Origin: Alphaproteobacteria bacterium SS10
Lineage (GTDB): Bacteria > Pseudomonadota > Alphaproteobacteria > TMED2
DNA length: 64,000 nucleotides
Direction of reading: 5' to 3'
NCBI GenBank assembly: GCA_019192455.1
Contig: JAHCML010000006.1
Coordinates: 25 to 64,024 of the forward strand
In this document: one piece after another, positions 24,228 to 45,378 of the stretch
Position numbering within the stretch: position 1 is the stretch's first letter
How the letters are laid out: every line of letters begins with the position of its first letter
Notes under the pieces: generated by a model
The model's input: the letters and a program-made list of their open reading frames with translations, nothing else
What the model was told of the DNA's origin: nothing
The model's database searches: none
Program-made: the position numbers and the translations under genes

Positions 24228-24233
24228 GGGCGC

Positions 24234-28397: not shown

Positions 28398-28442
28398 AAA
28401 GTGCCTCCTATTCGGTCCTAAGCTGCGCCCGGTCTTGCGCGA

Positions 28443-29063: not shown

Positions 29064-29077
29064 GGTCTGATCCTCCT

Positions 29078-30562: not shown

Positions 30563-30610
30563 TAGCCGCCTTCCCTTCTTCCCCTAAAACTTACTACCGA
30601 TCAGTACCGC

Positions 30611-31504
30611 TCAATTGGTCAGCCGGACCCGCTGAACTGAGGATCCGTGATAGACCCGCACCGATGGCCCCGTGCCCGCAGACACGTAATCCTCACCGCC
30701 TGCCTCGGCTAAAGCGTTCAACCGCGCAGCCTGGGTTGCAGCTTGCAACGCTTTGGCAATACCGATGTCAGACGTGAACTTTTGACTATCTGGCCGACCG
30801 GCATCGAGGACCTGATCCGCGCTCAACGCCCGCAAGGACAGGCTTAGATCGCCCATCTGCTGTGCCAGGGTTAGCTTCTCCGCCTGCTCCTGGGTGACTG
30901 CAACGGTGACAGAGCGCGCTGGCGCTGCATCCCGGCTATCCGTCACCACCTGATCAACGGCGAGGATGCGAATGCGCTCCAGGACAGTTTCAGAGGCATG
31001 GCGGGCAACAACGGTCTGTGCGGCTTGACGATCTTCACGGTCACCTTCAATGCGCACACTGTAGGTCATCAGGACATCAACGAAGTCACCCGGGCGGACA
31101 AAACCACCGGCTGAGGTTGTAACGGAGACAGGGATGCTGATGGCACGCTGATTGGGCTCCAACGTAGCGGCCAGGAAACCAGCATCCTTATCCTTGGAGA
31201 CCAGCATGCTGGGGAAGATTGGCTCCCCCTCCAATACGGAACGGCGGAGGCGCATATTCTCAAGATTATCGACAATCTCATCACCCTTCCGGATTGCATG
31301 GCGTGGCACCAGCTCAGCCGGCCAATCCTCCCAGGTGAAATCTCCCGTGCCGAGGCCGGCGCCTGTACCCAGATTCTCATCGGCGATCATCACCGGGACC
31401 TTGGGCAGTTCAGCGGGGGCTTCCTCGCCGCTATTGCCGAGGGCCAGAACAATCATGCCAACACCGGTGCCAATTCCGATCAGTAGTGCCATGCCACGAC
31501 GCAT
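30611..31504 (-). CDS. cpaB: Flp pilus assembly protein CpaB
   Basis: 297 aa with an N-terminal TM segment. The SAF/RcpC-like pattern is present. Operon position supports the call. Confidence 0.85.
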   Translation of the reverse strand: MRRGMALLIGIGTGVGMIVLALGNSGEEAPAELPKVPVMIADENLGTGAGLGTGDFTWEDWPAELVPRHAIRKGDEIVDNLENMRLRRSVLEGEPIFPSMLVSKDKDAGFLAATLEPNQRAISIPVSVTTSAGGFVRPGDFVDVLMTYSVRIEGDREDRQAAQTVVARHASETVLERIRILAVDQVVTDSRDAAPARSVTVAVTQEQAEKLTLAQQMGDLSLSLRALSADQVLDAGRPDSQKFTSDIGIAKALQAATQAARLNALAEAGGEDYVSAGTGPSVRVYHGSSVQRVRLTN

Positions 31505-31517
31505 CGTTGCTCCTCCG

Positions 31518-32024
31518 TCAGCTCAATAGGGTCAAAATGTTTGGGATGGTCATGGCCAGCGCGCCAGCGGCGATCGCCACACCATAGGGAACGCGCCGCA
31601 TGCCAAAGCGGAAGCCGCCATCAATACCCACACCTTCCAGCCAAACCGGCAGCGGGCGGGTAGCGGATAGCAGAACAACAACTGAGAGAACGCCGCCGGC
31701 AATTGCCATCGCGATAACAAATGGCAGCGCCAAGGTTGGACCAAATAGCAGCATCAAGGCACTGATCAGCTTGCCGTCACCAGCACCCAGCCAGGTGCGT
31801 GTGAACATGAAAAAGCACACTAAGAAGGCTGCCGCCGCAACGCCGAGATGGCCGATCACCGCTCCCATTGGAATAACCCCGGTGATAACAGCCAGCGGAA
31901 ACAGGCCAGCGGTTAGCATCACCAAGCGGTTGGGAATTCGGAAGCCGCTAATGTCGTACCAGGCAGCCGCTACTACGGCAGCGCTGATCAGCAGGCTAAT
32001 GGCAATCGGAAACAATTCCGGCAT
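31518..32024 (-). CDS. cpaA: Prepilin peptidase CpaA/TadV (A24 family, short form)
   Basis: 169-aa polytopic membrane protein. The track start 32027 is TTG. The ATG is at 32022-32024. It lies immediately downstream of flp. Confidence 0.85.
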   Translation of the reverse strand: MPELFPIAISLLISAAVVAAAWYDISGFRIPNRLVMLTAGLFPLAVITGVIPMGAVIGHLGVAAAAFLVCFFMFTRTWLGAGDGKLISALMLLFGPTLALPFVIAMAIAGGVLSVVVLLSATRPLPVWLEGVGIDGGFRFGMRRVPYGVAIAAGALAMTIPNILTLLS

Positions 32025-32078
32025 CAATCAAGAACTCGCAAAGGTTGTTCGGTGGCTATTCGCAAATCTGGAAACTAG

Positions 32079-32110
32079 AAGCCCGGGCCCCTGAAGCAGG
32101 CGACCCGGGC
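32079..32110 (-). terminator. Hairpin (candidate attenuator/partial terminator) between flp pilin gene and cpaA
   Basis: gcccggg(c)cctg-aag-cagg(cga)cccgggc imperfect GC-rich hairpin. On the minus strand it is followed by the U-rich 'ttctagtttccagatttg'. Confidence 0.4.
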
Positions 32111-32146
32111 CAATAGTGTGGTCGTTAAACCGTTTGGGTGATGGGC

Positions 32147-32353
32147 TTAGGTGCCATCACCACCGCCGCCGCCACCGCCGCCAGCTTGGGCGCCTTGGAC
32201 TTCTTCAGCGATACCGGTGAATGTCTCTTCGAGGGCCGGGCCAAGTAGCTGCAAGCCGCCGAGAACGGCCAATGACACCAGCGCCACAATTAGTCCGTAT
32301 TCAATTGCTGTGGCACCATCTTCTTGTGCCAAAAACTGTCTTAATGACGTCAT
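32147..32353 (-). CDS. flp: Flp/Fap family type IVb pilin with C-terminal poly-Gly tail
   Basis: 68 aa. Flp motif 'G|ATAIEYGLIVALVSLAVL' is present. The C-terminus is '…AQAGGGGGGGGDGT', encoded by a (GGC/GGT)8 repeat at 32157-32183. Confidence 0.85.
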   Translation of the reverse strand: MTSLRQFLAQEDGATAIEYGLIVALVSLAVLGGLQLLGPALEETFTGIAEEVQGAQAGGGGGGGGDGT

Positions 32354-32560
32354 TTACTTTCTCCACACATGTCATGCAGGGGGCTCTGCTTCGAGGCTCT
32401 TATGCATTTGCTGCCGACCTCATGAACACAGGTAACCATTGTTTAATGGGATCGCCAAATATTTTTATTTTTTGAGTATTTACCGGTTTTTTTATATTTT
32501 TTATTTTGTGAATAATTTGAAATAAATCGATCTATAACCGTCATTATTTATCTAGCGCGC
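32354..32560 (-). promoter_or_regulatory. AT-rich promoter island upstream of flp containing a CtrA-like box
   Basis: This is the only strongly AT-rich stretch in the window (32455-32550, multiple T/A runs). On the gene strand, TTAA-acaatgg-TTACC (32446..32431) differs by one base from the CtrA consensus TTAA-N7-TTAAC. It lies ~80-95 nt upstream of the flp ATG. Confidence 0.4.
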
Positions 32561-32647
32561 ACAGAAAAGTGGCGGCGAAACCAAGGGCTTAGCCGGTGGA
32601 ACAAACAAGTTTATTGAAATTGGATGGAGTGCGGTGACGCCGCTGGC

Positions 32648-33361
32648 TCAGCGTTCGGTGTTACCGCTGGCATCACCAAGGCCACCAGCGCTCGGGTTCA
32701 TCCCGGCTTGTGGGGCTGGTGCCACTTGTGGCTGGGCACGCGACATGGCGGCCGCACTAACCCGTTGGAACGCGGCAACCCGCTTATCAATCGCGACCGA
32801 GGGACCGGCATCAAGTGCGGCCTCATATGGGACCTGCCGGATACCAGCTGACATCGCCTGCTTCATATCGCGGACAGCGGCGATGGTTTTGTTAAGCGCC
32901 TGCTCAAGGTGTTTACCTTGCTTCTCGCGCTTTTTAACTTCCTTACCAGCTTCACCGATCGCCTTCTTGACCTGTTTGGCGGCATTCTTGAAGCCATTGT
33001 CTTTTCGAAGGCTGTTCCAAATACCGAATAGCTGCTCTCGGCTGTTCCAAAGCGCCTCATCCTCGGCAGAGGCAGCGCCCTTCTTCTTCCGGCGTTTCTT
33101 CGGCTGGCCGGTTTCCAAATCCTCTGGCTTTGCCTCCCCATCCCGCACGCGGTCAAAGCGGTCTTCTGCTTCCTGGAGCTGACCCTCAGACCAAATCTTT
33201 GCCAAACGATGGGGATTGGACAGGCGGCGATCGGCACGGCGACCGACATAGCTTAACTGGTCTTGGTTCCTATCAGCCTCACGCTGAATCTCGCCAACCA
33301 GACGGGTGGCTTCCTCAACCACCTTATAAAGCTCGATATTCTTGCCTTGAGGTTTCGCCAT
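32648..33361 (-). CDS. Hypothetical highly charged protein (Lys/Arg/Glu-rich, KKRRKKKG patch)
   Basis: 237 aa with ATG at 33359-33361. No recognisable domain. It lies immediately upstream of the flp promoter and downstream of a radical SAM gene. Confidence 0.5.
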   Translation of the reverse strand: MAKPQGKNIELYKVVEEATRLVGEIQREADRNQDQLSYVGRRADRRLSNPHRLAKIWSEGQLQEAEDRFDRVRDGEAKPEDLETGQPKKRRKKKGAASAEDEALWNSREQLFGIWNSLRKDNGFKNAAKQVKKAIGEAGKEVKKREKQGKHLEQALNKTIAAVRDMKQAMSAGIRQVPYEAALDAGPSVAIDKRVAAFQRVSAAAMSRAQPQVAPAPQAGMNPSAGGLGDASGNTER

Positions 33362-33386
33362 AACCGGGCACCACGCCTAACTACCG

Positions 33387-34637
33387 TTAATAGAGAACGG
33401 GCGCCGCATCACCGGTAATGGCGCGAATGCGGGGCTGATTCTCTAGCACCCAGTTAACGTAACGGCTGGCGCCGAAACAATCATCATCGGCGCGATTATC
33501 CTTCCAAAACTCCATGATGCATTTGTCGCTGTGGTCGCACTCCATGCATTCAGGGTTCTGGTTACGCAGCACTTGCCGGCGCAGGTAACGACGGCGCGCT
33601 GGTGAGGTCAGGATCTCTTCAAAGTCCTGCTCAAAAATATTGCCAAACTCGCGCATGAACTCTTTCCAGCCATCGCGGTAGTCCGGCAGGACAAAGTCGC
33701 CATTGGGCAGCAGGAACAGCGTCTGGCCAGCGATATTGGCCAAATGCGGTGTCTCGGCCTGGTGGGCGATGAAGCGCATCTGCCCGATCTCTGGCGCCGG
33801 CACGCCATCCTTGCGCAGCTTCAGCCAGTACTCGGACAGCCCGATCATGAAGTCGCTGTATTCATTCATGCGCGGAGCAAAATCACCGTAAGCGCCCGTG
33901 GAGTTCTGATCATTCCACATGAAGGGAAGCCAACTGGTTTCCGCCACACCGATATCGGTGAGGTAATCCAGGGTTTCTTCCGGCCCCTGATCAATTAGCT
34001 CACGGTTAACAACGCTGATCGTTGAGAGGCGTAGACCGGAATTCACAACCGCGCGGGATCGTTCATCCCATTTGCGCATATAGCCCTTACCGCGCATAAG
34101 GCCGTCGTAAGAGCTTTGAACCTCGCCCTCACCATAACGGTCAAAGAGGGCAAACCAATCATCCTTCACCCCAACCAGGGCAGTCAGAACGGTATGCTTG
34201 GTCCGATATCCTTCAGCTTCTGAGAAGACGCCATTGATCGCGTCAGCCGCACTGGTGAAATAATCCTGGCCCATAGAGGTCGGCTCACCGCCATACCAAT
34301 AGCCCACCACGGTTTTCTGGGCGATCTGCTGGTCACGGTAGTATTTATCGACCTTCTCACAGGTCATCCGCAGGTTCTCGACCGTCATCACGGTCTTATC
34401 CTTGCGTTGCTCAAGGCTGAGGTAGCAATGCGGACAGCGGAGCTTACAAAACAAGCTCGGCATCAGCGTGAAGATGAAGTAACCCTGCTCAATACTCACC
34501 AATTGGCGTTGATCGCCGGTCCCGCTTAAGGGGGATGGCGCGACGCCAGGCATGGGCTGGGGCGTGTTTAAGCCAGTTTCAGCAAGGAAAGGGCTATTGC
34601 TTAGCTGTGGGGTTGGTCCACCAAACGACACTGTCAT
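33387..34637 (-). CDS. Radical SAM/SPASM domain protein (anSME/peptide-maturase-like), paralog 4
   Basis: 416 aa. 'CKLRCPHCY' = CX3CX2C at residue ~64. C-terminal Cys cluster 'NPECMECDHSDKC…DDDC' is consistent with SPASM/twitch auxiliary Fe-S clusters. Confidence 0.85.
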   Translation of the reverse strand: MTVSFGGPTPQLSNSPFLAETGLNTPQPMPGVAPSPLSGTGDQRQLVSIEQGYFIFTLMPSLFCKLRCPHCYLSLEQRKDKTVMTVENLRMTCEKVDKYYRDQQIAQKTVVGYWYGGEPTSMGQDYFTSAADAINGVFSEAEGYRTKHTVLTALVGVKDDWFALFDRYGEGEVQSSYDGLMRGKGYMRKWDERSRAVVNSGLRLSTISVVNRELIDQGPEETLDYLTDIGVAETSWLPFMWNDQNSTGAYGDFAPRMNEYSDFMIGLSEYWLKLRKDGVPAPEIGQMRFIAHQAETPHLANIAGQTLFLLPNGDFVLPDYRDGWKEFMREFGNIFEQDFEEILTSPARRRYLRRQVLRNQNPECMECDHSDKCIMEFWKDNRADDDCFGASRYVNWVLENQPRIRAITGDAAPVLY

Positions 34638-34654
34638 GTCAGACCGGTCACCCG

Positions 34655-35368
34655 TTAAGCAGGTTGCTGATCGGTTTCGCCACCGTCAGCGGGTCCACCA
34701 TTACCCGAGTACTGATCGACCAGATCTTTCGCACAGGTTTTGGTGAATTCGTGGATTTGAGCGGTCATACGGCGCGCAAACGCCTTGAACTCTGCCTCAC
34801 CACCGAAGATGGCATAGATGTCCGCACGCAAACGATCCTTAAACGCGATCGTAAAGTCGGCATCTGACAGCGCCGACAGCCGTTGCAGGATATACGGGTC
34901 ACTCACCTCAAACTCATGATCGTCGCCGAGCAAGGTTTCGACGAAGAGATACTCGATGAAGTTCGTAACCGGCGCGAGGAACTGGCCAAAGTTGCTTTGA
35001 CCAAAATAAACCTCAGCGAATGCTTTCAATCGTTCGAAATAGGCCTGGTCTGCCTCGTCGCTGCGTTCTACCGGCGGCAGTAGAGAGAGGGAAAAGCCGG
35101 CATTAGCGGCGACGGAGACCATGTATTTCGGATCGATATCTGACTGCTCTGCTGGGATTTCCAGCACAACCTCAACGCCTGCGAGACCATAAGAGATGAT
35201 GACATCCATCAAGGTTTCGTCGATATCCCCATCCTCACCTTTGAAGATCAGGGAGATATGCTTGAGGTCAGCCGGTGGCGAGAAACTATCAACGTCAACC
35301 TCAACACCGTAGTGGAAAGGCTGGGCCGACAACTCCGCGTTATCGACAATCTCACTGAGAGCAGTCAT
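34655..35368 (-). CDS. Hypothetical acidic protein (possible partner/chaperone of the radical SAM system)
   Basis: 237 aa, rich in Asp/Glu (pI clearly acidic). No recognisable motif. ATG at 35366-35368. It is sandwiched between the precursor candidate and radical SAM paralog 4. Confidence 0.55.
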   Translation of the reverse strand: MTALSEIVDNAELSAQPFHYGVEVDVDSFSPPADLKHISLIFKGEDGDIDETLMDVIISYGLAGVEVVLEIPAEQSDIDPKYMVSVAANAGFSLSLLPPVERSDEADQAYFERLKAFAEVYFGQSNFGQFLAPVTNFIEYLFVETLLGDDHEFEVSDPYILQRLSALSDADFTIAFKDRLRADIYAIFGGEAEFKAFARRMTAQIHEFTKTCAKDLVDQYSGNGGPADGGETDQQPA

Positions 35369-35405
35369 TCAGCAATCACCAAACAAATAGAATGATGGTT
35401 ACGCG

Positions 35406-35933
35406 TTAGCGCCAACCGCGAGAGCCGTGGCAAGCACCGTGGCACGCACTGTGGCAGTTGCTGTAGCAGCTAAAGCTGTTGATCGTGCCCGACTGGCTCA
35501 ATAGACCACCCGTCGCACCGCCGCCGCCGCCGAGGACCGCATCACCACCGCCAGTCACCTGGCCGCCGACACCACTCTCATTCTGCGCGACCTGCCACTC
35601 ACCAATCGACTTGCCGTCGAAATACTCGTCGGCGATGGACTTGCCGTCGAAGGTTAGGTTGCTGGTGAAGATGTCCAAGCTTTCGCTGACCGCTTCACGA
35701 ACGCTGCGCTTGCTGACAGCGCTAGCAATGGCACGGTCAAGCTCATCGGACACGCCCGTGTCCGTGCTGACTTCAACAGCCTCATAGCTGGCCGCATGCG
35801 CAATAGCGCTGGTGGCGATTAGGGCCAAAGAGGTCGAAACGGCGACCGGGCCAACCTTAATGGCTGACTTCTTGGCTGTGCTGCTATCACCCGAACCATT
35901 GGATGGGTTTGGCATCTGGATATCGTCTGGCAT
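35406..35933 (-). CDS. Candidate modified-peptide/protein precursor: signal-peptide-like N-region, duplicated FDGKSI(A/G)(D/E) motif, Gly-rich linker and C-terminal Cys/His-rich tail
   Basis: 175 aa. Strong SD 'agagggggg' sits 6 nt before the ATG at 35931-35933. Hydrophobic segment 'VGPVAVSTSLALIATSAIAHA|AS' is signal-peptide-like. 'LTFDGKSIADEYFDGKSIGEW' is a duplicated motif. The C-terminus is 'GGGGGATGGLLSQSGTINSFSCYSNCHSACHGACHGSRGWR'. An AT-rich intergenic region with promoter-like elements lies upstream. Confidence 0.6.
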   Translation of the reverse strand: MPDDIQMPNPSNGSGDSSTAKKSAIKVGPVAVSTSLALIATSAIAHAASYEAVEVSTDTGVSDELDRAIASAVSKRSVREAVSESLDIFTSNLTFDGKSIADEYFDGKSIGEWQVAQNESGVGGQVTGGGDAVLGGGGGATGGLLSQSGTINSFSCYSNCHSACHGACHGSRGWR

Positions 35934-36095
35934 TGTGCCCCCCCTCTAGAACTGCCTTACATCATCCGAACAGCAAAAAACGACCAAAATCCGGATGGAT
36001 TAAAACTAACTACCACCAACAATACACGATTTATAAATATCTCGCACGAAATTACCTGATCACAAATACGCGCTTTGAGGCATTTTGCGGCGGTT

Positions 36096-37211
36096 TTAGG
36101 CTACATCTTCGTGTGATGGCGCTGCGACCAAATCCCAGGTCTGCTGGAACAAACGCTGCCCACCTGAGCACTCACCGGACCCATCATCGTAAAGGCTCGC
36201 CAAACAGCCAGAGGAGCAAACCTTACGGAACTGGCAGGTTTGGCAGTCCCATTGGCGCTCTGCCCGCGCTTGCTCATAGTCACCAAAGGCAAGTATTTCG
36301 GTCGCGCGCTTATTATCGATCTCAGACGTAACGGCAGTACAACCGGCCTTGTAGCCATTAGCATCGATCGTGTGGAACTTAGTGTCGCAACTACCAGACC
36401 AACAGCCATAGCCCCCGGCTTCACCGGCCTGAAGACGATTAATGCTCTGAATCAGACCATCTAGCGGCGAGACATGTAGACGATCGCTCGCCTCCACTTG
36501 TTCGCGCGTCTCACAATAGCGCCAATAGGCCCGCATAAAGCGGTTCATCGCGGCGCTGTATTCAGCATTATTCAGGCCAACGCGGTCCCAGTTCTCTCGC
36601 GCGTAGCCGGTTTTGGTGACACGCTCGAGATGTACACGGCGTACACCTCGCTCTTCCATCATCTGGAAGAACCGATAAGGGTCGCGGAAATGCTCAACAA
36701 AGGTACGGGTAAAAGTCACGACCATATAGGGGTCGAGGCCATCAGCTAGCAGCCGCTCAAAATTATTCCAGAACCGAGATTCATAAACCTCGTTGGATTG
36801 CCGATCATTGGCGCGTAACAGCCGAATTTTGGGGTCCCAAGACACCCCAACCTCGCCGCCAAAGTACTTCTTGTAAACCGGGATCCAAGGATCGCCATAG
36901 GTCATCAGGTTGGTCTGGATACCGTGCTGCCATTGATAGTCGCCACCAGCGGCCTCAACCGTATCAATCGCTTCCGCAAGCCATTCAGCACCGAAGATTG
37001 TCGGCTCACCACCATGCCATTGCAGCAGGATATTCGAGCCCTTCGGTGCGAACTTGGTCAGCTGCTCTGGGATCGCGGCCAGATCATCCTTACCCATCTT
37101 CTTGGGGTTGGAAGGAATAAAGCAGTGCTCGCAATGAAGATTGCAGCCCTCAAAAACCCGAACGTAAACCAGGTGGTCAAAGGCTGGGGCGAAAGGCAAA
37201 CGTCCACTCAT
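36096..37211 (-). CDS. Radical SAM/SPASM domain protein, paralog 1
   Basis: 371 aa. 'CNLHCEHCF' = CX3CX2C at residue ~23. C-terminal 'GCWSGSCD…GYKAGC…CQTCQFRKVCSSGC' is SPASM-type. Confidence 0.85.
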   Translation of the reverse strand: MSGRLPFAPAFDHLVYVRVFEGCNLHCEHCFIPSNPKKMGKDDLAAIPEQLTKFAPKGSNILLQWHGGEPTIFGAEWLAEAIDTVEAAGGDYQWQHGIQTNLMTYGDPWIPVYKKYFGGEVGVSWDPKIRLLRANDRQSNEVYESRFWNNFERLLADGLDPYMVVTFTRTFVEHFRDPYRFFQMMEERGVRRVHLERVTKTGYARENWDRVGLNNAEYSAAMNRFMRAYWRYCETREQVEASDRLHVSPLDGLIQSINRLQAGEAGGYGCWSGSCDTKFHTIDANGYKAGCTAVTSEIDNKRATEILAFGDYEQARAERQWDCQTCQFRKVCSSGCLASLYDDGSGECSGGQRLFQQTWDLVAAPSHEDVA

Positions 37212-38419
37212 GCCGCTGCCCCTTCCTTGGTCTTATCGCCTGCCTTATCCGCGGCCGCTGCACCGTCGGTATCAAGCCCAGCCTGAGCGGCAGCATAGAT
37301 ATTGCTCGCGGCACTGAATTTCTCGCGAAGCGCTAAATCCAGATCCAAATAGGCAAGCAACGGTGCCTGCCCGCGATCCGTAATGAACTGCCGGATATGG
37401 GTCAGGAATGTTTTGTAGCCGGAGCACTCCACCTCACCATCTGGAACACCATTCGGTGTGATGGGGCAGCCAGAGTGGCACCAATTGCTGTTCTCACAAC
37501 CATGGCAATGGTCCCGCTTATGGCCATAGCTCTGCATGCGAAGCCATTTGCGCCGGAACGAATTCTTGGCAAAGCCTTGGAAGCCACCTTCCACATTGCC
37601 GTAATTCTCTTCCACCGTTGATTTATCCGGGCAATTATTGAGGGAGCCATCTGGCTCAACAACCACGAAGTCAGACTGGCAGGTGGTGCCCCAACGATCA
37701 CCAGGCGCCTGGAACAGCACGCCCATAATGCCGGCTTTCACAGCGCCGATGATTGGCGCCTTACCATCCCGCTCCATCCGCTCCATCACGGCATCAAAGA
37801 GGCCCATGAGGAAGTAGGAGTGCTCAAGGTTATTGGGACGATCATCAAAATACGTCTGATAGGAGTTGTAGCGGTCCAAATTGACCACCTCGAACTCGCG
37901 CTCAACAAACCAATCTACTAGCTCTTGCTCGCGGCCCAGCTCCTGCCGTGTCGGCACAACGCCAGGCACCACATTGATCCCATCACCGCGCACGCGCTCA
38001 ACCTTTTGCATCCAAAGCTTGTGGTAGTTCTCCACCGAGCCCTTGATCTGCCGTTGGCTGAAATCAATTGAGGAGCCAATCTCACGGCCACAACGCTCAA
38101 TCACCCAATCGCGATACTCATCACGCCATGGGATAAGGGATGTTTGGATCGCCTGGAAGTTATCGGGCAGGACCTTGTCCAACACCTCACCCGCTTCCCA
38201 GTACCATTCAACTGGAACCGTTAGCGGCTCACCACCATGCCAGAGGACGAGCGACGCATCCTTGCGCTGGGCCTTCTGCATATCGGCGATCAGGGTGCCT
38301 GCCTTGGCCAGCACGTCATGGCTCATCCGGAATTTATTGGCGCGCACGATCTCCGGCAGGTAGCAATGGGTGCATCCCACATTGCAGTAATTTGTCGGCT
38401 TCACATAAGCGACAATCAT
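37208..38419 (-). CDS. Radical SAM/SPASM domain protein, paralog 2
   Basis: 403 aa. 'CNVGCTHCY' is present, plus C-terminal 'CPDKS…CHGCENSNWCHSGC'. It overlaps paralog 1 (ATGA) and paralog 3 (ATGA), suggesting translational coupling. Confidence 0.85.
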   Translation of the reverse strand: MIVAYVKPTNYCNVGCTHCYLPEIVRANKFRMSHDVLAKAGTLIADMQKAQRKDASLVLWHGGEPLTVPVEWYWEAGEVLDKVLPDNFQAIQTSLIPWRDEYRDWVIERCGREIGSSIDFSQRQIKGSVENYHKLWMQKVERVRGDGINVVPGVVPTRQELGREQELVDWFVEREFEVVNLDRYNSYQTYFDDRPNNLEHSYFLMGLFDAVMERMERDGKAPIIGAVKAGIMGVLFQAPGDRWGTTCQSDFVVVEPDGSLNNCPDKSTVEENYGNVEGGFQGFAKNSFRRKWLRMQSYGHKRDHCHGCENSNWCHSGCPITPNGVPDGEVECSGYKTFLTHIRQFITDRGQAPLLAYLDLDLALREKFSAASNIYAAAQAGLDTDGAAAADKAGDKTKEGAAA

Positions 38420-39573
38420 GCGGCGATCTCGCGGTTCAGGTTGCGCTTGCGGCGCACCTCCTCGGGGTCCAGGCCGTATTTGCGGATGGCGCCATCCGCC
38501 TCACCATTGCGCACGGTCTCTTTGATGCGGTCAAAGACCATCATCCAAGCATGGCAGTAGTGGAACTTGCCGCCCAGCCCATGATTGTACAGCACAGCAT
38601 CGCGCATGCAGCCGCCCTCACACTCACCGAAGTGGCGGCAGCTTTGACAATCGAGCGGAAGGTCGACGCGACGACGGCGGATCATGGCGGCCGCCCGTGA
38701 TTTCATCAGCTCCGGAATGGTCATCTCATTGAGATTGCCAAACATGAACTCTGGATCGCCCAAATCCGCAAACTCTGAGCAGTTATAGGTATCGCCATTC
38801 GGCTCCAGGCCCAGGAAATGACCGCCGCAGGATCTGGTCCAGGGGCAGCGATTAACCTCAAGGGCAATCACCTTCTTCAGCATCTCATCGAGCGGGGTAA
38901 TGACGAAAACCGGCAGGTCTACGATCCAGCGCTCATAAAGCTCAAGCAGCATCGTGCCGTAATCATGGGGGCTAATCATTTCCCCATTACCCTCATCCCG
39001 CCCCGCCGGATACCGGTAGTTGAAGCGGAGATGCGGCGCCTTATCGCCATAGGCTAGGCTACGGTCATACATCTCATGCGCCATGGGCGCGGTTTCGGTG
39101 GTGTAGGTGCCAATGATCTTCGGATAGAAGCCATCGTCGAGCACCTCCTCTAGCCGCTTATAAAACAGGCGGGTGTAGAGGGCTGCCGAGCCCTTATAGA
39201 TGCGGTTGGTTTCATCCGGATCGAAGGATGTTGAGACCGAACCGTTGAAGATGTCTTTAAAGACGTCATACCAACGGTTGTGGTTATAGCTCAGCAGGTT
39301 CGTCTGGATTGAGAAGTTGATGTTGGGGTTCTGCGCCTTGGCATACTCCCAAGCCTGCTCATAGAAGTCAGGGCCAAGCAGCATGGGCTCACCGCCATGC
39401 CAGATAATGTAAGCCTGGTCGGTTAGATGCGGGCCAATCTTATCGAAATACCGCTTAAAATCGTCAATCGACCATTTCGGCACCCCGTCAGGGGGCGCAC
39501 TGCAATAGGTACAGGCCGCATTACAAACCTTCGTTGGTTTGGCGATTACGGTAGAGATCATGCCTAACCCCAT
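38416..39573 (-). CDS. Radical SAM/SPASM domain protein, paralog 3
   Basis: 385 aa. 'CNAACTYCS' is present, plus C-terminal 'CPWTRSCGG…CSEF…CQSCRHFGECEGGC'. Confidence 0.85.
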   Translation of the reverse strand: MGLGMISTVIAKPTKVCNAACTYCSAPPDGVPKWSIDDFKRYFDKIGPHLTDQAYIIWHGGEPMLLGPDFYEQAWEYAKAQNPNINFSIQTNLLSYNHNRWYDVFKDIFNGSVSTSFDPDETNRIYKGSAALYTRLFYKRLEEVLDDGFYPKIIGTYTTETAPMAHEMYDRSLAYGDKAPHLRFNYRYPAGRDEGNGEMISPHDYGTMLLELYERWIVDLPVFVITPLDEMLKKVIALEVNRCPWTRSCGGHFLGLEPNGDTYNCSEFADLGDPEFMFGNLNEMTIPELMKSRAAAMIRRRRVDLPLDCQSCRHFGECEGGCMRDAVLYNHGLGGKFHYCHAWMMVFDRIKETVRNGEADGAIRKYGLDPEEVRRKRNLNREIAA

Positions 39574-39671
39574 CCCTTCCCCAATATGACGCCCTCCATT
39601 TGAGCGTTGGTCCGACTGACCTCGGCAACCACCAAAACACTAGCGGTTGCTTAAAAATTTCCCCAATTTCA

Positions 39672-39723
39672 ACAGGATAAAAGAAATGAAAACGGGCGAC
39701 CAGCATTTTCGGCCTGGTCGCCC
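39672..39723 (-). terminator. Rho-independent terminator after the giant pilin-like gene
   Basis: Perfect 10-bp inverted repeat gggcgaccag / ctggtcgccc (39694-39703 and 39714-39723) with a 10-nt loop. On the minus strand it is followed by 'gttttcatttcttttatcc'. Confidence 0.6.
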
Positions 39724-39765
39724 GTCACATAAATGTTTGCTCGCCCTAACCCACGGGCAATCGCA

Positions 39766-42700
39766 TTACAGCTGGCAGTAAACCGTCACAACCGCAACGC
39801 CGTTTGTCATCTGACGCCATGGTGCCAGATCATTCTTCTGACGCGCTTCCATGACAAGGGTGCCACCGCCGGTCATATACACACGACCCTGGGTGTTGTT
39901 GTCATAGTCACCACCGGCAAGCTCAGTACCATCAGCTGGATTGATGTCGTCGATATCGGTAACGCGAATGACGTCATCCTGGGCCGTACCGGCACCATCA
40001 CCATCCTGAAGCTGCGTGATACGGGTCTGCGCAATCATGACCGGCGTCACCCACCATGCTGGGGTTGCAGCGTAGAAGATGGTGCCTGCGCCACCACCCG
40101 TTGGGGTCAGGCAGCGATTTCGAAGCGTTGCACTAACGGTTTGACCATCACTTAGGACCTCAACGCCAGAAACAATCAACTGCTCTGAGACGTTGGTGTC
40201 GCTCAACCAAACATCACGGCCGCGAAGATAGATATCATCAACGTCCAGGTAAGACTGATCAGCACCAAGTGGTGATGCACCGACCAGCGCACCAGCACCA
40301 AGCTTCAAGGCACCATCGGCCGCAGCTGATTCAGTAAAGAACCGCATCCGGTTTCCACCGGCAGCATTGTTCACAATGAGCGATGGCTGGGCGGCATCGC
40401 TCTCACCGCGCAAGACCACACGGTTGGTACCTGCCTGATCAAGGATCCGAACGACATTCCGGGTCGCATTTGAGACGATCTGCATCGTGTCGGTCGCTTG
40501 ACCATTATTGCGAATACCGAAGGTGTTGTTGCCATCGGAGTAAGCAATCCGACCGTCATAGTCCGCGCCGAGTGAACCGGTCCCCTTAAAATCAATGAAG
40601 GAGGTTTGGTTGTTACCGCTACCGATCTCAACACCGCCATCATTTGGATCAACGAGGAAATAGCCACCTGCGGTTGGCGTATTCGCATCAGCAGCGGACA
40701 GGCGGAACTGACCATTGTTGCTGTTCACGATTGCACGCTCGACACCATCAGCAGCACGCCAGTCCTGGACCCCGCTTGCGGTGTCAAATTGGCGCCGAAG
40801 GTTACCGGCAGCATCGTTCAACCGCTCTACACCTGCAGCGGCGTCGGTCTCGAATTCATAACGAACCGTTCCGGCAGTATCACGAACCCGAACAAACGCG
40901 CTGTTACCAGAACTCACAAACTGATTGCGGTTCCGGCCAGCTGAGTCAGACATAACCACATTGGTATCAGTGGCATTATAAATGGCAGCGAGACGATTAT
41001 TGGTACCGTCCGAGAACACCAGATTACCATCGGCACCAAAGTAGTCGGTACGGAACCGGTCATTAGCACCGTCATTCAACTCCAAGCGCCCCGAGCCCGC
41101 CCCATAGTTAGCGGCAAAGCGTGAGTTCGCGGCTGTATCGTTCCCAATGGCAATCTGACCCGTTGTTGCATCGTAATCAGCAAGAAGCCGGCGGGAACCG
41201 CCATCATTCATCGACAAGCGACCCGTGAGGGCAGTGTAGTTGGACACGAACCTAGGATCGACACCGGTTGTGTCATTACCAATAGCAATCTGACCTGTAC
41301 CCCCAGTGTAGTCGGCAAGCACGCGCTGGTTGCCACCGACATCGGCCAACTCGACACTACCGGTTGCAGCGTCATACTGGTTCATCACCCGTTGGGTCGC
41401 CCCATCATCACGCATGATGTTCTGACCAACATTCCCATCATACCGAGAGACAAAACGCTCTGCATCCGCAGCCTGGTTGACTTGATCGCGAACTCCAAAT
41501 CGACCAGCGGTTGGGCTGTCATATTGCTGAACAAAGCGCTCAACGCCGGTTTCGTCACCAACACGAACCAAACCACGAGCGTTGCTAGCGGCTGTACCAG
41601 CAGCATCGAGGCCAAACTCTGACCGCAGACGCTCGTTATTCGCATTGTCGCGCATAACGAAGGTGCCGGCCTCTGGAATGACGCCGTTACCGGCACGGTT
41701 CTGGCCATAATCGAACTGCACACGATCCCGGACACCACTGGCATCGGTCATGGTGAAGTTACCAGCATCAGGGAGAACGTTACCGGCACGGTCAAAGCCG
41801 TAATCCAGACGCATCCGCTCTTGCAGGCCGTCGTTGAAGAACGTCACGCCCCGGGCGTTACCACCTTCAGAGGTGTAAGACGTCTGGGCACGTGGGGCCG
41901 CAGCAACACCATCGCGAAGGGTAATGTTACCGGCAGTTGGCTCACGAGCGTTCAGCTCATCAAGCCCGTAATTCAGCTCAATCCGGCGGGTTGCCAGGGC
42001 GCCGGTATCGGTACCCGCGCTGATTTGGCCAGCTTGGCTGCCCGTATCGTCAAAGGTGAAGTTCCCACGCTCTATGTTGGCCGCATCATAAAGCTTAAAG
42101 CCTGGGTCGGTAGATCGAACACCAGCGGCTGGTGCCACCAGTGCGACTTCAACACCATCCACATCGAGGCCGGAATCCAGAATCGCACGCTGACCATTCG
42201 GTAGGGCACGATTTGCAGCCTCAACCCGCTGCTGGGCGCGGACACGCTCTTCAGCATCGACGAAGCCAAAGATTGCATCACCACCAACGATATTCACATT
42301 GCCGCGGGCGTAAGCAGCGTTGGCACCAGTCTGGTTGTCGTTACCAAATCGAATGACGTTCTCATTCGTTCCGGCCCCAACAGCTGGATCGAAGTTACTA
42401 TCCAGTTCACCATCAGCGTTCAAATCAACACGCGGCGCTGCAGCCGGGGCAAACACGGCAGGTGCCGGCAGTGGCACTGTATTTGTCTGGAGGCCGTTTT
42501 GCCCAACTTCCGGGTTGCCATCCTGGGCGAGCGCAGCACCATTCAGCGGCGCACCAATTTGGGCCACGTTGGCCAGGCCAAACTCACCCATATTGATGTT
42601 GGCATTCATCTGCTGGGCTTCTGGCTGCCCTGGAATGCTGTTCCGGTATAGGAAGTCGGCAACGACGCCACCTTCACCAAAGAACGCCATGGCGGCTAGG

Positions 42701-43338
42701 CCACCACGTTCTGGTGGAACACCGAGATCTGCGTTATCCAACTCCCAACCACCGAACGCACCATAGGTGGTGTTATCGGCATACACCCCAGAGACATCAG
42801 AGCCGAAACCAAGTTCGGTCGGGTCAGCAGCACGCCAACCGGCGTCGGCGCCAACGGCAGCCGCGATCTGGGCCGCAGTTGTCGGCTCAATATGTTCATA
42901 ACTGCCGGTGCCGTCATCCTCGGACACCACCTGCACCCGCAGACGCTCACCGCCAATGTTCAAAACATATATATTGAGGTCGTGGCCAAAGGCGTTCTTG
43001 CGGATATCCGCGCCATCAAAGAAACGGGGATCCAGATAACCATCAAGAGCATCATCATCCAACTGCTGGGCCGCACCGCCGGCAACCGGGTCACCGATAT
43101 CGGCATTACCGCCATCGATGATGTCGCCATAATTATCGATAACGTACGCGGCGGCGGCATCACGAACAGCGGCCAATTGCTGTGCCGTTTGTTCAGCCTT
43201 AACGCGCCGGAGGTTATCAACCTGCAGATTAGCAATCGCGCCAAGCCCAATACCAAGGGTTGCAACGCCCAGTATCGCTTCAGTCAAGCTGATACCGCGC
43301 TGCCCAAGAGGCTTTTGAGAGTTAATTTTTTTACTCAT
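39766..43338 (-). CDS. Giant type IV pilin-like protein with tandem degenerate ~22-aa repeats (putative pilus-associated adhesin/fibre)
   Basis: The track start 43353 is TTG. ATG at 43336-43338 with SD 'gaggga'. N-terminus is MSKKINSQKPLGQRG|ISLTEAILGVATLGIGLGAI: a 15-aa basic leader ending in Gly, Glu at +5 and a ~20-aa hydrophobic helix, i.e. a class III (prepilin) signal. There are ~1190 aa in total. The central ~450 aa are repeats of the form …R..(A/V).Y(D/G)..TG…..D(G/T)..N(R)… . Confidence 0.8.
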   Translation of the reverse strand: MSKKINSQKPLGQRGISLTEAILGVATLGIGLGAIANLQVDNLRRVKAEQTAQQLAAVRDAAAAYVIDNYGDIIDGGNADIGDPVAGGAAQQLDDDALDGYLDPRFFDGADIRKNAFGHDLNIYVLNIGGERLRVQVVSEDDGTGSYEHIEPTTAAQIAAAVGADAGWRAADPTELGFGSDVSGVYADNTTYGAFGGWELDNADLGVPPERGGLAAMAFFGEGGVVADFLYRNSIPGQPEAQQMNANINMGEFGLANVAQIGAPLNGAALAQDGNPEVGQNGLQTNTVPLPAPAVFAPAAAPRVDLNADGELDSNFDPAVGAGTNENVIRFGNDNQTGANAAYARGNVNIVGGDAIFGFVDAEERVRAQQRVEAANRALPNGQRAILDSGLDVDGVEVALVAPAAGVRSTDPGFKLYDAANIERGNFTFDDTGSQAGQISAGTDTGALATRRIELNYGLDELNAREPTAGNITLRDGVAAAPRAQTSYTSEGGNARGVTFFNDGLQERMRLDYGFDRAGNVLPDAGNFTMTDASGVRDRVQFDYGQNRAGNGVIPEAGTFVMRDNANNERLRSEFGLDAAGTAASNARGLVRVGDETGVERFVQQYDSPTAGRFGVRDQVNQAADAERFVSRYDGNVGQNIMRDDGATQRVMNQYDAATGSVELADVGGNQRVLADYTGGTGQIAIGNDTTGVDPRFVSNYTALTGRLSMNDGGSRRLLADYDATTGQIAIGNDTAANSRFAANYGAGSGRLELNDGANDRFRTDYFGADGNLVFSDGTNNRLAAIYNATDTNVVMSDSAGRNRNQFVSSGNSAFVRVRDTAGTVRYEFETDAAAGVERLNDAAGNLRRQFDTASGVQDWRAADGVERAIVNSNNGQFRLSAADANTPTAGGYFLVDPNDGGVEIGSGNNQTSFIDFKGTGSLGADYDGRIAYSDGNNTFGIRNNGQATDTMQIVSNATRNVVRILDQAGTNRVVLRGESDAAQPSLIVNNAAGGNRMRFFTESAAADGALKLGAGALVGASPLGADQSYLDVDDIYLRGRDVWLSDTNVSEQLIVSGVEVLSDGQTVSATLRNRCLTPTGGGAGTIFYAATPAWWVTPVMIAQTRITQLQDGDGAGTAQDDVIRVTDIDDINPADGTELAGGDYDNNTQGRVYMTGGGTLVMEARQKNDLAPWRQMTNGVAVVTVYCQL
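40600..42050 (-). repeat. Intragenic tandem degenerate repeats (~66-69 nt unit) in the giant pilin-like gene. Coordinates are approximate.
   Basis: Protein-level periodicity is present (…ADYTGGTGQIAIGNDTTGVDPRFVSNYTALTGRLSMNDGGSRRLLADYDATTGQIAIGNDTAANSRFAANYGAGSGRLELNDGANDRFRTDY…). Boundaries were estimated from residue positions, not computed. Confidence 0.5.
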
Positions 43339-43362
43339 TTCCAAATCCCTCAAACGAGAAGG

Positions 43363-44262
43363 TTAATCGCAGAAACCATCGTCAAATTCATCGCCGGTCC
43401 CCGGCAGCCCATCGGCACCAAGAACATCATCGGCTTTCTTACACACCACGTAAACCGGCACCCCATCAGGGATTAGGTTGTTCCCACCACGATCGACGAG
43501 CGGAATGTTCACGATCGCTGAAATCTCATTCGCATCCAGCGTACCGTGATCCATCGCATCATCTGGCGGATTTTGCAGATCAAAGGAACGGGCCAGCTGA
43601 ATGTGCTCAACCCCACGACGGGTTAATGTACCACCATCATTGATGCCGAAGTTAACCGTACCATTGAATGCCCGGCGAAACCCCTTAGCGAAATCATCAA
43701 CGCTGACCGTCTCCAGAAAGTTCTGCCCGCCAGGTGTGCGCGGCACGTTTTCGACAAAACCGATAATTGCCGCCACTTCACCAGTACCGGCGCCTAGGGC
43801 ATCAACCTGCTCAATAACAGCGACACGCCATGGGCCGTCCGCCGTATAGTTGGTTGGCAAAAACCGACGAACAGGATCCGCAGGCCCGAGAAAAGCCGGA
43901 TCAGTTACCGCAGCGTCTGCGTAGTCGGAATTGGTCAGGAACGTCTCGAAATCGGCGACATCCATTACCCAATAACCAGCACTTGGGTTACCGGGATCGG
44001 CAAGCTCAGCCGCAATCTCAGTCTGTGCAAGGGCAATTGGCGGACCGGGAATAGGCCAGGTGCGTTGATCAATCGCATAAGTTGAGAGGGCCGACTCAAC
44101 CGAAGCCACAAACCGGGCCATGTCACGGCCTAGACCGTGAGAGTAGGCATCATGCGGCTTCTCATAAACCAGGGGAGCATCACCTGGTGATTTCGCTTGG
44201 AATGGGTTGCTCAACGATAGGTAAAACGCGGCAACCACTAAGGCGATCAACAACGCATACAT
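43363..44262 (-). CDS. Hypothetical N-terminally membrane-anchored protein
   Basis: 299 aa. ATG at 44260-44262. N-terminus 'MYALLIALVVAAFYLSLS' is a TM segment. It ends 10 bp before the giant pilin-like gene. No known domain recognised. Confidence 0.55.
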   Translation of the reverse strand: MYALLIALVVAAFYLSLSNPFQAKSPGDAPLVYEKPHDAYSHGLGRDMARFVASVESALSTYAIDQRTWPIPGPPIALAQTEIAAELADPGNPSAGYWVMDVADFETFLTNSDYADAAVTDPAFLGPADPVRRFLPTNYTADGPWRVAVIEQVDALGAGTGEVAAIIGFVENVPRTPGGQNFLETVSVDDFAKGFRRAFNGTVNFGINDGGTLTRRGVEHIQLARSFDLQNPPDDAMDHGTLDANEISAIVNIPLVDRGGNNLIPDGVPVYVVCKKADDVLGADGLPGTGDEFDDGFCD

Positions 44263-44551
44263 ATCAGCACCTCCCGATCACAAATCGGTGGCTGAAATCG
44301 CTGGAAAAACCTGTGTTCACCCTGATCACTAACGGGACCCCCATCCCACAACTCGGACACACAACACTGCCACAAACCCCATGGGCAGCACTAAATCATC
44401 CGCTAAAGCACGGGGCACTGCAACTTAAAAGTTTGTTAAAATTGTATCGTTAACGCAATTTGCGGCAGGTTTGGCGCAGTCACCGGGAGCAAAGCAAAGG
44501 CTTTAATTTCTGCGGATTTTGGCAATCGCCGCCCCAAAAACGGGCATGGCG

Positions 44552-45181
44552 CTATCCCGCGCCGCAATATTCCTGCGACAGACAGATGACGATGGCGGGG
44601 GCGTTTTGGGTCGTTTGATCGAATGGCAGCCCGCGCAAACGCCCAAAACCACGCTCAACCCCAGGATGGGTAAAACTGTCGGTTAACAGGGAGCCTTGGC
44701 TAAGCAAACCAACCGTTACTTGGCCACCAGCGGTCAGTCGAAGGCCCCTCGCAATATCAACGGGCCGCATGGTTCGCGGCAGATTTGCCTGGTTCACATA
44801 GGCAACCACGGCGCCAATGCCTGGATCCGTTTCGGTGGCGGCAACCCCACTTCCCGCCTCCTTCACCGGCAGAAGATAGGCACGCCATGGCATTGTTGGG
44901 TTGTAAGAGGCTGGCAAAACCGGGGCATAGCGTGGGTTTTGATCCAGGGTCGCGACCGTAACGGCGTTCGGATAACGCGGCAAACTCTCCGGAAACTGGT
45001 TCAGCCGCGCCATTACAGCCTCGGCAAATACCGACAGGCTATGGGCGTGCACCTCCGCCTCCGCGGTTGATGCGGCCGCCGGTGGGTTCATAAAGGCAAG
45101 CTCGTCAAACGCCTCCCGGTCGGCTGGCAACATAAGCAGCACGAACAGCGAAAACATAAGAGAGATCATGACCGGATACAT
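44552..45181 (-). CDS. Hypothetical N-terminally membrane-anchored protein
   Basis: 209 aa. ATG at 45179-45181. N-terminus 'MYPVMISLMFSLFVLLML' is a TM segment. It is the first gene of the minus-strand block. Confidence 0.55.
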   Translation of the reverse strand: MYPVMISLMFSLFVLLMLPADREAFDELAFMNPPAAASTAEAEVHAHSLSVFAEAVMARLNQFPESLPRYPNAVTVATLDQNPRYAPVLPASYNPTMPWRAYLLPVKEAGSGVAATETDPGIGAVVAYVNQANLPRTMRPVDIARGLRLTAGGQVTVGLLSQGSLLTDSFTHPGVERGFGRLRGLPFDQTTQNAPAIVICLSQEYCGAG

Positions 45182-45378
45182 GGGGTGAGCTTATCCCAGT
45201 TTACGCCCCGACAAAATGGCGATTAGGCACGCTGTGAGGCGTCGGACTGACAGAAGTTTCATAGAACAGTCACAGAAACTTTCCGGCCTAGCGCGTAGTA
45301 CAAACGCGAAAGGTCGCGTATCTTAAAGACAGATAACGCAGCCTCAAGTGACTGACGAAACGACAAAACATCGATCAC

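Follow-up and report, generated by a model that had tools for sequence, protein, structure and literature searches.

A radical SAM module beside a Tad operon

The window analyzed here is a 64,000-nucleotide stretch of the genome of Alphaproteobacteria bacterium SS10 (contig JAHCML010000006.1, positions 25 to 64,024), and our subject is a cassette of radical S-adenosylmethionine (SAM) genes that lies in it next to genes for a Tad/Flp pilus. A listing of open reading frames (ORFs), their translations, and Pfam and NCBIfam searches revealed 19 minus-strand genes that follow one another in an unbroken run from 45181 down to 23274 (21.9 kb). The run comprises a complete flp-cpaA-F-tadBC operon, four radical SAM/SPASM genes (rSAM1 to rSAM4), and genes for a precursor of 175 aa, a prepilin of 1195 aa, and two membrane proteins. 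An earlier reading of the bare sequence (the original prediction) had given the same inventory, coordinates, and uninterrupted run, all of which these searches confirmed, and had set the region of interest at 32147-45181. The unit that is conserved in related loci spans 32648-46494, contains 11 genes, and includes a divergent gene at 45379-46494:

45379-46494, plus strand: div371, 371 aa, divergent; opens the module in the marine sister clade, where it is conserved
44552-45181, minus strand: mem209, 209 aa, with an N-terminal hydrophobic helix; paralogue of mem299
43363-44262, minus strand: mem299, 299 aa, with an N-terminal hydrophobic helix; paralogue of mem209
39766-43353, minus strand: giant PilV-like prepilin, 1195 aa, with a type IV prepilin signal
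38416-39573, minus strand: rSAM1, Pfam Radical_SAM (6e-10) and SPASM (7e-6), CX3CX2C at residues 17-24
37208-38419, minus strand: rSAM2, TIGR04085 SPASM at 34.5 bits (cut-off 27); 4-nt overlaps with both rSAM1 and rSAM3
36096-37211, minus strand: rSAM3, radical SAM protein with a Cys-rich, SPASM-like C-terminal region
35406-35933, minus strand: putative precursor, 175 aa, ending ...CYSNCHSACHGACHGSRGWR
34655-35368, minus strand: unkB, 237 aa, acidic; always after the precursor gene
33387-34637, minus strand: rSAM4, Pfam SPASM (1.7e-6), anSME-like (2e-19), with an N-terminal extension of about 60 aa
32648-33361, minus strand: unkA, 237 aa, Lys/Glu-rich; last gene of the module, found in this clade only

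The original prediction had the radical SAM block inserted between an accessory pilin gene and flp. Comparison with related loci (see below) indicates instead that 32648-46494 is a self-contained, vertically conserved module in which the giant pilin gene and the radical SAM genes form one unit, and this unit abuts the Tad operon here. Boundaries of a mobile element had not been seen, and none turned up now: there is no tRNA anywhere in the window, and general Pfam scans of the window and phmmer comparison with the neighbors of the sister-clade loci found no integrase and no type IV secretion system homologue. The GC content is 0.564 in the module, 0.592 in the Tad operon, and 0.589 in the housekeeping genes, and the differences in GC3 are not significant. 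GC and boundary data neither demonstrate nor rule out a recent insertion of the module. A plasmid origin of the window was rejected, as a megablast search of 32000-45400 against PLSDB gave no match and the flanks are housekeeping genes.

A precursor family with a repetitive Cys/His tail

The 175-aa protein starts with a Sec-type hydrophobic segment ending AHA|AS, followed by a small helical middle domain and a Gly-rich linker. Four C-[H/Y]-x-x units make up its C-terminal part, which closes with the invariant sequence CHGSRGWR-COOH. We found 82 relatives among 5.8 billion proteins, and a profile search of 1.84 billion cluster representatives brought the family to 252 clusters at E<=1e-3. The alignment is only 35% identical overall. 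Of its 14 invariant columns, a single one lies outside the tail, whose pattern is C..C...CH.ACHGSRGWR-COOH.

Two hundred family members were compared unit by unit. Each tail carries 3-7 tandem four-residue units (mode 4), with a single member reaching 13. Position 1 of the unit is always Cys; position 2 is His in 558/806 units (69%) or Tyr in 241/806 (30%); position 3 is Gly, Ser, Thr, or Ala; and position 4 is Ala, Asn, or Ser. The CHGSRGWR end is present in 140 of the 200 proteins. An N-terminal hydrophobic segment was detected in 189 and a small-x-small site behind it in 183, which fits a Sec signal peptide. The tail is the sole invariant part of a family of some 250 clusters, the gene order around it is conserved, and the radical SAM proteins have the motif and the SPASM-type C-termini of peptide-modifying families (see below). 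We therefore consider it likely that the radical SAM enzymes mature the 175-aa protein. The proposal that the radical SAM block and the Cys/His-rich protein make up an enzyme/substrate cassette is supported.

The family appears to be undescribed in the searchable literature, where the tail motif SRGWR led to no relevant paper. Profiles of the precursor and of UnkB gave no meaningful match to PDB sequences. An AlphaFold2 (AF2) model of the precursor predicts the helical middle domain with low confidence (pLDDT 55). Profile matches of this middle domain to proteins of 3100-4551 aa were discarded: these are spider silk spidroins and reflect a compositional artefact. We also rejected, by reasoning, the attachment of heme c at the CX3CH-like units, since overlapping sites every 4 residues are sterically implausible and dedicated radical SAM enzymes suggest another chemistry. 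Three loci (L039, L043, and L049) carry two tandem precursor genes.

The radical SAM enzymes and UnkB

All four radical SAM proteins contain the CX3CX2C motif (CNAACTYC, CNVGCTHC, CNLHCEHC, and CKLRCPHC). The SPASM threshold of Pfam or TIGR04085 is passed by rSAM1, rSAM2, and rSAM4; rSAM3 is borderline (22.8 bits versus 27). The significant matches below threshold are to peptide-modifying radical SAM families only. For rSAM1, the top NCBIfam matches are DynA (134 bits), TIGR04083 (132 bits), and anSME (120 bits), all far under their cut-offs. No enzyme of the module reaches the curated NCBIfam cut-off of a named maturase (DynA, DarE, anSME, AmcB, GrrM/OscB, YhhB, XyeB, FxsB, PapB, HxsB/C, or TIGR04115), the best score being that to DynA, 134 bits versus 450. 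Orthologues of rSAM1 occur in 47 loci and those of rSAM4 in many (1e-130 to 1e-215); orthologues of rSAM2 and rSAM3 are likewise found among the related loci. A role in anti-phage defence was considered and dropped: PADLOC returned generic viperin-like radical SAM similarity only.

The AF2 model of UnkB, built on an alignment with 21 homologues, has a pLDDT of 87.8 and resembles ChlB. It predicts a radical-SAM-like partial barrel that lacks the cysteine triad for an Fe-S cluster, so UnkB is probably a pseudo-enzyme or a scaffold. Most non-marine loci have a further protein of about 376-382 aa after unkB (e.g., L002 11427-12557), which is absent from the window. This fifth protein is a remote relative of rSAM1 (about 1e-22). 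In Agrobacterium rubi no precomputed Pfam match to Radical_SAM is recorded for it, so it may be a second pseudo-enzyme.

A giant prepilin of predicted PilV type

The 1195-aa protein has a 20-aa leader and a cleavage site GQRG|ISLTE (in GQRG|ISLTEAILG...), in which Gly occupies position -1 and Glu position +5. No other canonical prepilin is encoded in the window. Its residues 8-268 align in BLASTP with PilV-like proteins: a 472-aa pilin of Thalassospira (1e-16) and PilV of A. rubi (3e-11, over residues 20-268). The A. rubi partner carries Pfam Shufflon_N (6e-21); the giant pilin itself gives no Shufflon_N match at E<=0.01. At the other end, its C-terminal ...VTVYCQL corresponds to the ...TYCYY end of PilV-like proteins. 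Between the two lies a repeat-rich, clade-specific middle of about 800 aa that matches nothing in Pfam or among PDB sequences. On the strength of homology at both ends, the giant pilin is best classed as a PilV-type type IVb pilin with a clade-specific insertion of about 800 aa. A shufflon would comprise invertible segments and the Rci recombinase; the general Pfam scans of the window found no recombinase.

The cassette accompanies PilV-like pilins, not Tad genes

The original prediction tied the radical SAM block to tad and proposed synteny analysis as a check. We gathered 90 loci by exact homologue look-up and from species-representative genomes, metagenomes, and plasmid records, and analyzed 88 of them. 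Loci were mapped by phmmer with the window's 20 proteins and with annotated pilus and type IVB secretion system (T4BSS) proteins as queries. None of the 88 related loci contains a Tad-specific best match; linkage to tad as a general feature is thereby largely refuted. Upstream genes were counted in the 29 non-redundant loci with at least 2.5 kb of sequence upstream of rSAM1. A PilV-like prepilin gene lies directly upstream of rSAM1 in 26 of them, or 27 if a locus recognized by jackhmmer (L086) is included. PilQ/PilR were found in 19/29, T4BSS markers in 4/29, and Tad genes in 0/29. An evolutionary tie between the cassette and a pilus component is supported for PilV-type pili and not supported for Tad/Flp.

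The pilV-rSAM1 junction is tight. The gap ranges from -1 nt to about 150 nt in many loci, values of 9-150 nt being common, and in p12969-DIM (an IncP-2 plasmid typed MPF_I by MOB-suite) the two genes overlap by one base. The order rSAM1-2-3, precursor, unkB is conserved in more than 40 loci; the minimal conserved cassette consists of three radical SAM enzymes, the precursor, and the pseudo-radical-SAM protein UnkB. No protease and no transporter or exporter is conserved in it.

The closest clade is made up of marine metagenome contigs and metagenome-assembled genomes (MAGs), whose precursors are 44-51% identical to that of the window. The nearest relative, MAG AAF556, has a 74% identical precursor on a contig of 3 kb. 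These loci have the whole 11-gene module, from div371 to unkA, in unchanged order. Past unkA, where the window has flp, every one of them shows convergent genes for TraX/IcmV-like, IcmW (NCBIfam 3.9e-15, Pfam 4.9e-16), and DotA/TraY (133.5 bits versus a cut-off of 100) proteins, which points to a type IVB secretion/conjugation system beside the module. All unkA-bearing members that could be inspected, the window excepted, share this T4BSS arrangement.

In distant relatives, the core (rSAM1-2-3, precursor, unkB) is followed by further radical SAM genes, including rSAM4 orthologues. Among these carriers are A. rubi, Rhizobium leguminosarum pRlX5, Thalassospira, MAGs of Hyphomicrobiales and Rhodospirillaceae, Cysteiniphilum, and megaplasmids of Pseudomonas and of Vibrio, the latter about 900 kb in size. 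Their cassette core sits directly downstream of a type IVb pilus operon that encodes a PilQ-like ATPase, a type II secretion system F-type (T2SS-F) protein, a PilS-like major pilin, a PilT-like ATPase, and a PilV-like prepilin of 340-700 aa. PilV of A. rubi is a bona fide Shufflon_N/N_methyl protein, and a Vibrio vulnificus record has PilO2, TcpQ, DotD/TraH, and DotA/TraY annotated near the cassette. A tblastn search with rSAM1 hit 137 plasmid records at 1e-30 or better, 130 of them from Pseudomonas; the IncP-2 precursor ends ...CHNACHGACHGACHGSRGWR. The link between cassette and pilin thus spans Alpha- and Gammaproteobacteria, on chromosomes as well as megaplasmids. Taken together, this distribution shows the likely real partner of the cassette to be the PilV-type tip pilin and not the rest of the pilus machinery.

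Several loci depart from the common layout. In IncP-2-type plasmids (p12969-DIM, 21155-32739 of L013; also L055, L057, and L060), the cassette is followed by five more radical SAM/SPASM genes, a 1155-aa phosphoenolpyruvate (PEP)-utilising enzyme, and a 2-oxoglutarate (2OG)-Fe(II) oxygenase, a pathway much larger than that of the window. A Rhodospirillaceae MAG has a 770-aa PilV-like ORF (L008 7428-9740) directly before the precursor gene, with no rSAM1-3 detected between them, and unkB, an rSAM1-like gene, and rSAM4 downstream. The chromosomal-looking locus L086 has, at 16320-18358, a MoxR-type AAA ATPase and a von Willebrand factor A (CoxE-like) protein after the radical SAM genes.

Likeness to known systems

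Type IV pilus genes next to radical SAM genes have been noted before, as backbone synteny of Pseudomonas megaplasmids, by Hall et al. in 2015 (PMC4989453), by Cazares et al. in 2020 (PMC7070040), and in a 2026 paper (PMC13391042); as far as the available passages of these papers go, the function is given as unknown, and the 2026 paper describes the role of the cluster as still to be determined. The same passages make no mention of the precursor. The megaplasmids concerned (pQBR103, pQBR57, the IncP-2/pBT2436 family, and pMPPla107) resemble the core of the window in having rSAM1-2-3, a precursor ending ...CHGACHGSRGWR, and an UnkB homologue, and the genes that precede their cassette (ATPase, T2SS-F, pilins, PilV-like pilin) are of the same families and in the same order as in the other related loci. 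They differ in their full type IVb machinery, 3-5 further radical SAM genes, the PEP-utilising enzyme, and the 2OG oxygenase; the window for its part has the 1195-aa pilin without machinery, two extra membrane proteins with div371 and unkA, and a Tad neighbor. The original prediction knew of no precedent. That stands for Tad, for which we found none, and does not stand for type IV pili. In the searchable literature, no paper joins radical SAM enzymes with type IV pili or pilins, with PilV or thin pili, or with Tad/Flp, nor a RiPP (ribosomally synthesised and post-translationally modified peptide) signal peptide with a pilus. The earlier sightings lower the absolute novelty of the gene neighborhood and raise its practical interest, given tractable hosts and clinical relevance. 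To the plasmid papers our analysis adds the probable substrate family, the minimal cassette, the PilV-type partner, and a far wider host range, with carriers in Rhizobium, Agrobacterium, Thalassospira, Vibrio, Cysteiniphilum, and marine Alphaproteobacteria as well as in Pseudomonas.

The pilus operons of the related loci recall the R64/IncI thin pilus. They share with it the PilQ-PilR-PilS-PilT-PilV order, the MPF_I typing (p12969-DIM), and Dot/Icm-like neighbors. PilV of A. rubi has Shufflon_N like the PilV tip adhesin, whereas the giant pilin of the window does not reach the Shufflon_N model alone. To our knowledge, R64 itself has a shufflon after pilV and no radical SAM cassette.

For the modification, the nearest likeness is to triceptides, made by enzymes that form cyclophanes of three residues (3-CyFEs: HaaB, HtkB, YhhB, and ChlB) on aromatic-X-X motifs such as HAA, HTK, and YDR; HaaB links His-C2 to Ala-C-beta on HAA (PMC11499958). 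The precursor has tandem aromatic-X-X units of this kind (H-G-A, H-S-A, Y-S-N, and H-G-S), the radical SAM enzymes give sub-threshold matches to AmcB, GrrM/OscB, YhhB, XyeB, and FxsB, and the model of UnkB resembles ChlB. As the [H/Y]-x-[A/N/S] units match the aromatic-X-X motifs, we infer triceptide-like cross-links. The two systems also differ: here an invariant Cys precedes each unit, each locus has 3-8 radical SAM enzymes rather than one, a protein of 120-175 aa that carries a Sec signal serves as the precursor, and no named cut-off is reached. In the CXXX-repeat peptide system (TIGR04115), the target likewise has a Cys at every fourth residue; rSAM2, at 17 bits against a cut-off of 350, is not a member.

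Two further systems offer partial parallels. CofJ and TcpF are secreted by type IVb pili via the tip minor pilins CofB and TcpB (PMC6048534, PMC9565799, PMC10120004). As the precursor would be, they are small Sec-exported proteins encoded in a type IVb pilus operon beside a large minor pilin; they share no sequence or fold similarity with it and undergo no radical SAM modification, so the analogy is one of logic only. Bufferins are Sec-exported, Cys-containing, copper-binding RiPPs modified by an oxidative enzyme that depends on multinuclear non-heme iron (MNIO; PMC11626156). They have in common with the precursor a Sec signal on a RiPP, Cys residues, and metal-binding potential, and differ in the use of an MNIO rather than radical SAM enzymes, in their motif, and in having no pilus link. 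Compared with all of these, the cassette would be a radical-SAM RiPP-like system set apart by its undescribed precursor family and by its conserved coupling to a pilus tip protein. The need of one precursor for 3-8 radical SAM enzymes is unusual in itself for RiPP chemistry.

A possible mechanism and its alternatives

These results suggest that the module contains an uncharacterised RiPP-like maturation cassette that accompanies the PilV-type tip pilins of type IVb ("thin", R64-like) pili, and that its cross-linked, exported product acts with the tip pilin. We give this reading as a whole a probability of roughly 0.55; that the product is functionally tied to PilV-type pili, taken by itself, seems probable. 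The 175-aa precursor would be synthesised in the cytoplasm and modified there by rSAM1-4, probably on an UnkB scaffold. Several intramolecular cross-links would be placed in the C-terminal C-[H/Y]-x-[A/N/S] repeats. These could be triceptide-like His/Tyr-to-C-beta cyclophanes, Cys thioethers, or both; the invariant Cys could instead bind metal. The whole protein would then be exported through Sec by means of its N-terminal signal peptide. In the periplasm or at the surface, the resulting rigid Cys/His-rich knot with its invariant GSRGWR end would work with the PilV-like pilin, as cargo of the pilus tip or through tip-assisted secretion, in a way that would resemble CofJ with CofB and TcpF with TcpB. 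The pilin of this genome is enlarged to 1195 aa, PilQ/PilR/PilT are not nearby, and assembly may have passed to CpaA, the ATPase, and the secretin of the Tad system. A partnership with the Tad machine is doubtful here.

Should action at the pilus tip be borne out, the product would represent a new route to pilus accessories and could matter for the transfer of IncP-2 resistance plasmids. A more far-reaching version, which we offer tentatively and think unlikely to hold in full, makes it the first known type IV pilus accessory cross-linked by RiPP-type radical SAM chemistry: a Sec-exported knot, docked on or ejected by the PilV-type tip pilin, that would modulate adhesion or the formation of mating pairs on behalf of conjugative megaplasmids, among them the IncP-2 multidrug-resistance family. 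In this marine-type alphaproteobacterium, the cassette, together with a giant PilV derivative, would have been rewired to a Tad machine.

Several points count against the reading just given. The cassette occurs without an adjacent pilin at L006 and L010, where upstream sequence is adequate, and, by its gene map, at L087, so the link to a pilin is not obligatory. The radical SAM enzymes score below every curated family cut-off, so the proposed chemistry is tentative. The poor AF2 model of the precursor lends no support to a predicted pilin-binding surface, and cross-linked proteins may be poor Sec substrates. For every member of the family, the suggested function is a reading of sequence, and use of the Tad machinery is suggested by one genome. 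The available passages of PMC7070040 and PMC13391042 also call the function of the pQBR/IncP-2 cluster unknown.

The arrangement in the window could instead indicate a Tad-specific accessory, with the cassette product, the giant pilin, or the Gly-tailed Flp decorating the Tad/Flp pilus. The cassette and the Tad genes are adjacent and on the same strand, there are no PilQ/PilR/PilT-type genes and no prepilin peptidase besides CpaA in the 64 kb, and Glu stands at +5 in Flp (G|ATAIEY) as well as in the giant pilin (G|ISLTE), which would allow CpaA to process the two. This arrangement is unique to the window, however: Tad genes are missing from all 88 related loci, and every other unkA-bearing member of the clade has T4BSS genes in the position of flp. 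In addition, flp has an AT-rich upstream region of its own, Flp is not conserved with the cassette, and the module is slightly poorer in GC than the Tad operon, at a GC3 that is not significantly different. As a general rule this explanation is largely refuted, and for the window we regard it as improbable. Equally improbable is a stand-alone secreted or periplasmic RiPP-protein, such as a bufferin-like Cys/His metal chelator or a bacteriocin, that hitch-hikes beside pil genes with no mechanistic link to the pilus. It would account for the Cys/His-rich tail and the Sec signal, for the three loci without an adjacent pilin, and for the many carriers that are megaplasmids or conjugative elements, where cargo genes cluster; bufferins provide a precedent. 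It would not account for the position directly after pilV, which is kept across two proteobacterial classes despite extensive rearrangement elsewhere and with start/stop overlaps in some loci, nor for the window and its sister clade, in which the pilin accompanies the cassette though the pilus machinery does not.

Tight coupling to pilV, and the presence of 4-8 radical SAM genes, more than one short tail seems to need, would also be expected if the enzymes modified the PilV-like or major pilins themselves, with the small protein as a cofactor or chaperone. Yet its invariant, repeat-structured Cys/His/Tyr tail is a classic substrate signature, and, apart from the prepilin signal and the C-terminal YC, no motif of comparable conservation is common to the PilV-like proteins; this explanation is very unlikely. 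The label arylsulfatase, used in PMC4989453 for the pQBR plasmids, raises the question of an anaerobic sulfatase maturase that converts Cys to formylglycine in a sulfatase. The anSME model is matched by rSAM1 (1e-34) and rSAM4 (2e-19), and the last Cys of the precursor, in C-H-G-S-R, resembles the C-x-[P/A]-x-R motif. We reject this explanation as such: at 120 and 70 bits, the scores fall short of the cut-off of 349, neither the window nor the conserved cassette contains a sulfatase gene, and Gly takes the place of the Pro or Ala that the motif demands. The last Cys of the precursor itself might still be converted to formylglycine. We thus favor an exported, cross-linked partner of PilV-type tip pilins.

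Other genes of the module and the Tad operon

The divergent protein Div371 has phmmer matches of 4e-96 and 8e-95 in two marine sister loci (L003 and L015), at the equivalent relative position, and matches no Pfam or NCBIfam family. Its stretch YVVAVDDATRYGGSF resembles the phosphoribosyl pyrophosphate-binding loop of phosphoribosyltransferases, for which no Pfam or NCBIfam model matches. Homologues of Mem209 are confined to the marine clade by jackhmmer, and the protein has no match in Pfam, NCBIfam, or PADLOC. Between the stop codon of mem299 and the start of the gene for the giant pilin there are 9 nt. UnkA is represented by 7 clusters in 5.8 billion proteins. A 61-aa ORF at 39521-39706, which overlaps the start of rSAM1 and lacks a family match, was treated as non-coding.

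The region 23274-32353 is a complete Caulobacter-type Tad/Flp operon, in which all diagnostic Pfam families pass except CpaE. Together with the spacer that separates it from the module, it consists of:

32354-32647, minus strand: AT-rich spacer, 294 nt, with an extremely AT-rich core; GC 0.49-0.50 in that stretch
32147-32353, minus strand: flp, Flp_Fap (1.4e-15), with a poly-Gly tail at the end of the protein
31518-32027, minus strand: cpaA, Peptidase_A24
30611-31504, minus strand: cpaB, RcpC
29078-30562, minus strand: cpaC, Secretin, T2SS-T3SS_pil_N, and BON
28443-29063, minus strand: cpaD, Pilus_CpaD
27117-28397, minus strand: cpaE, weak ParA/BcsQ-type matches
25294-27099, minus strand: cpaF, T2SSE (2e-66)
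24234-25256, minus strand: tadB, Pfam T2SSF (tadC/tadB E = 3e-18 and 6.5e-23)
23274-24227, minus strand: tadC, Pfam T2SSF (E values as given with tadB)

Flp scores 57.2 bits with PF04964 (cut-off 32.2) and has the processing site ...EDG|ATAIEYGLIV. The CpaA/TadV peptidase, RcpC/CpaB, the secretin, the CpaF/TadA ATPase, and the two T2SS-F platform proteins each exceed the Pfam gathering score. The C-terminal tail of Flp is unusual (AQAGGGGGGGGDGT), and no evidence ties it to the radical SAM genes; the earlier idea that the Gly-tailed Flp is their substrate found nothing in its favor.

The spacer delimits the module and is probably the promoter region of flp. Its 294 very AT-rich nucleotides suggest that flp-tadC is transcribed as a unit of its own. 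Scans for promoters and terminators gave counts no higher than the shuffled expectation. The co-regulation by CtrA that the original prediction named as something to check gained no support from a count of TTAA-N7-TTAA boxes, 5 matches against 5.4 expected across the window. With the window-wide count at chance level, a perfect site lies at 44425-44439, between mem209 and mem299, and a one-mismatch site at 32432-32446, upstream of flp. Just past the flp stop codon, at 32075-32108 on the minus strand, there is an inverted repeat rich in GC (GCCCGGG...CCCGGGC) with TTCTAGTTT after it. This element resembles a terminator or attenuator in the flp-cpaA interval and is absent from the list of the consensus terminator scan; such elements are described as common after major pilin genes.

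The 22-kb run is flanked by housekeeping genes: a pseudouridine synthase, a sigma-70 factor, purA, a His-tRNA-synthetase-like gene, serA, a glutathione S-transferase, and a major facilitator superfamily transporter. Two successive minus-strand ORFs of 409 and 602 aa at 57448-60599 have no Pfam match. Among the housekeeping genes, in 49074-51733, a 193-aa protein without a family match is overlapped by 1 base by a 692-aa protein that shows a weak protein-kinase match (6.5e-4, below threshold).

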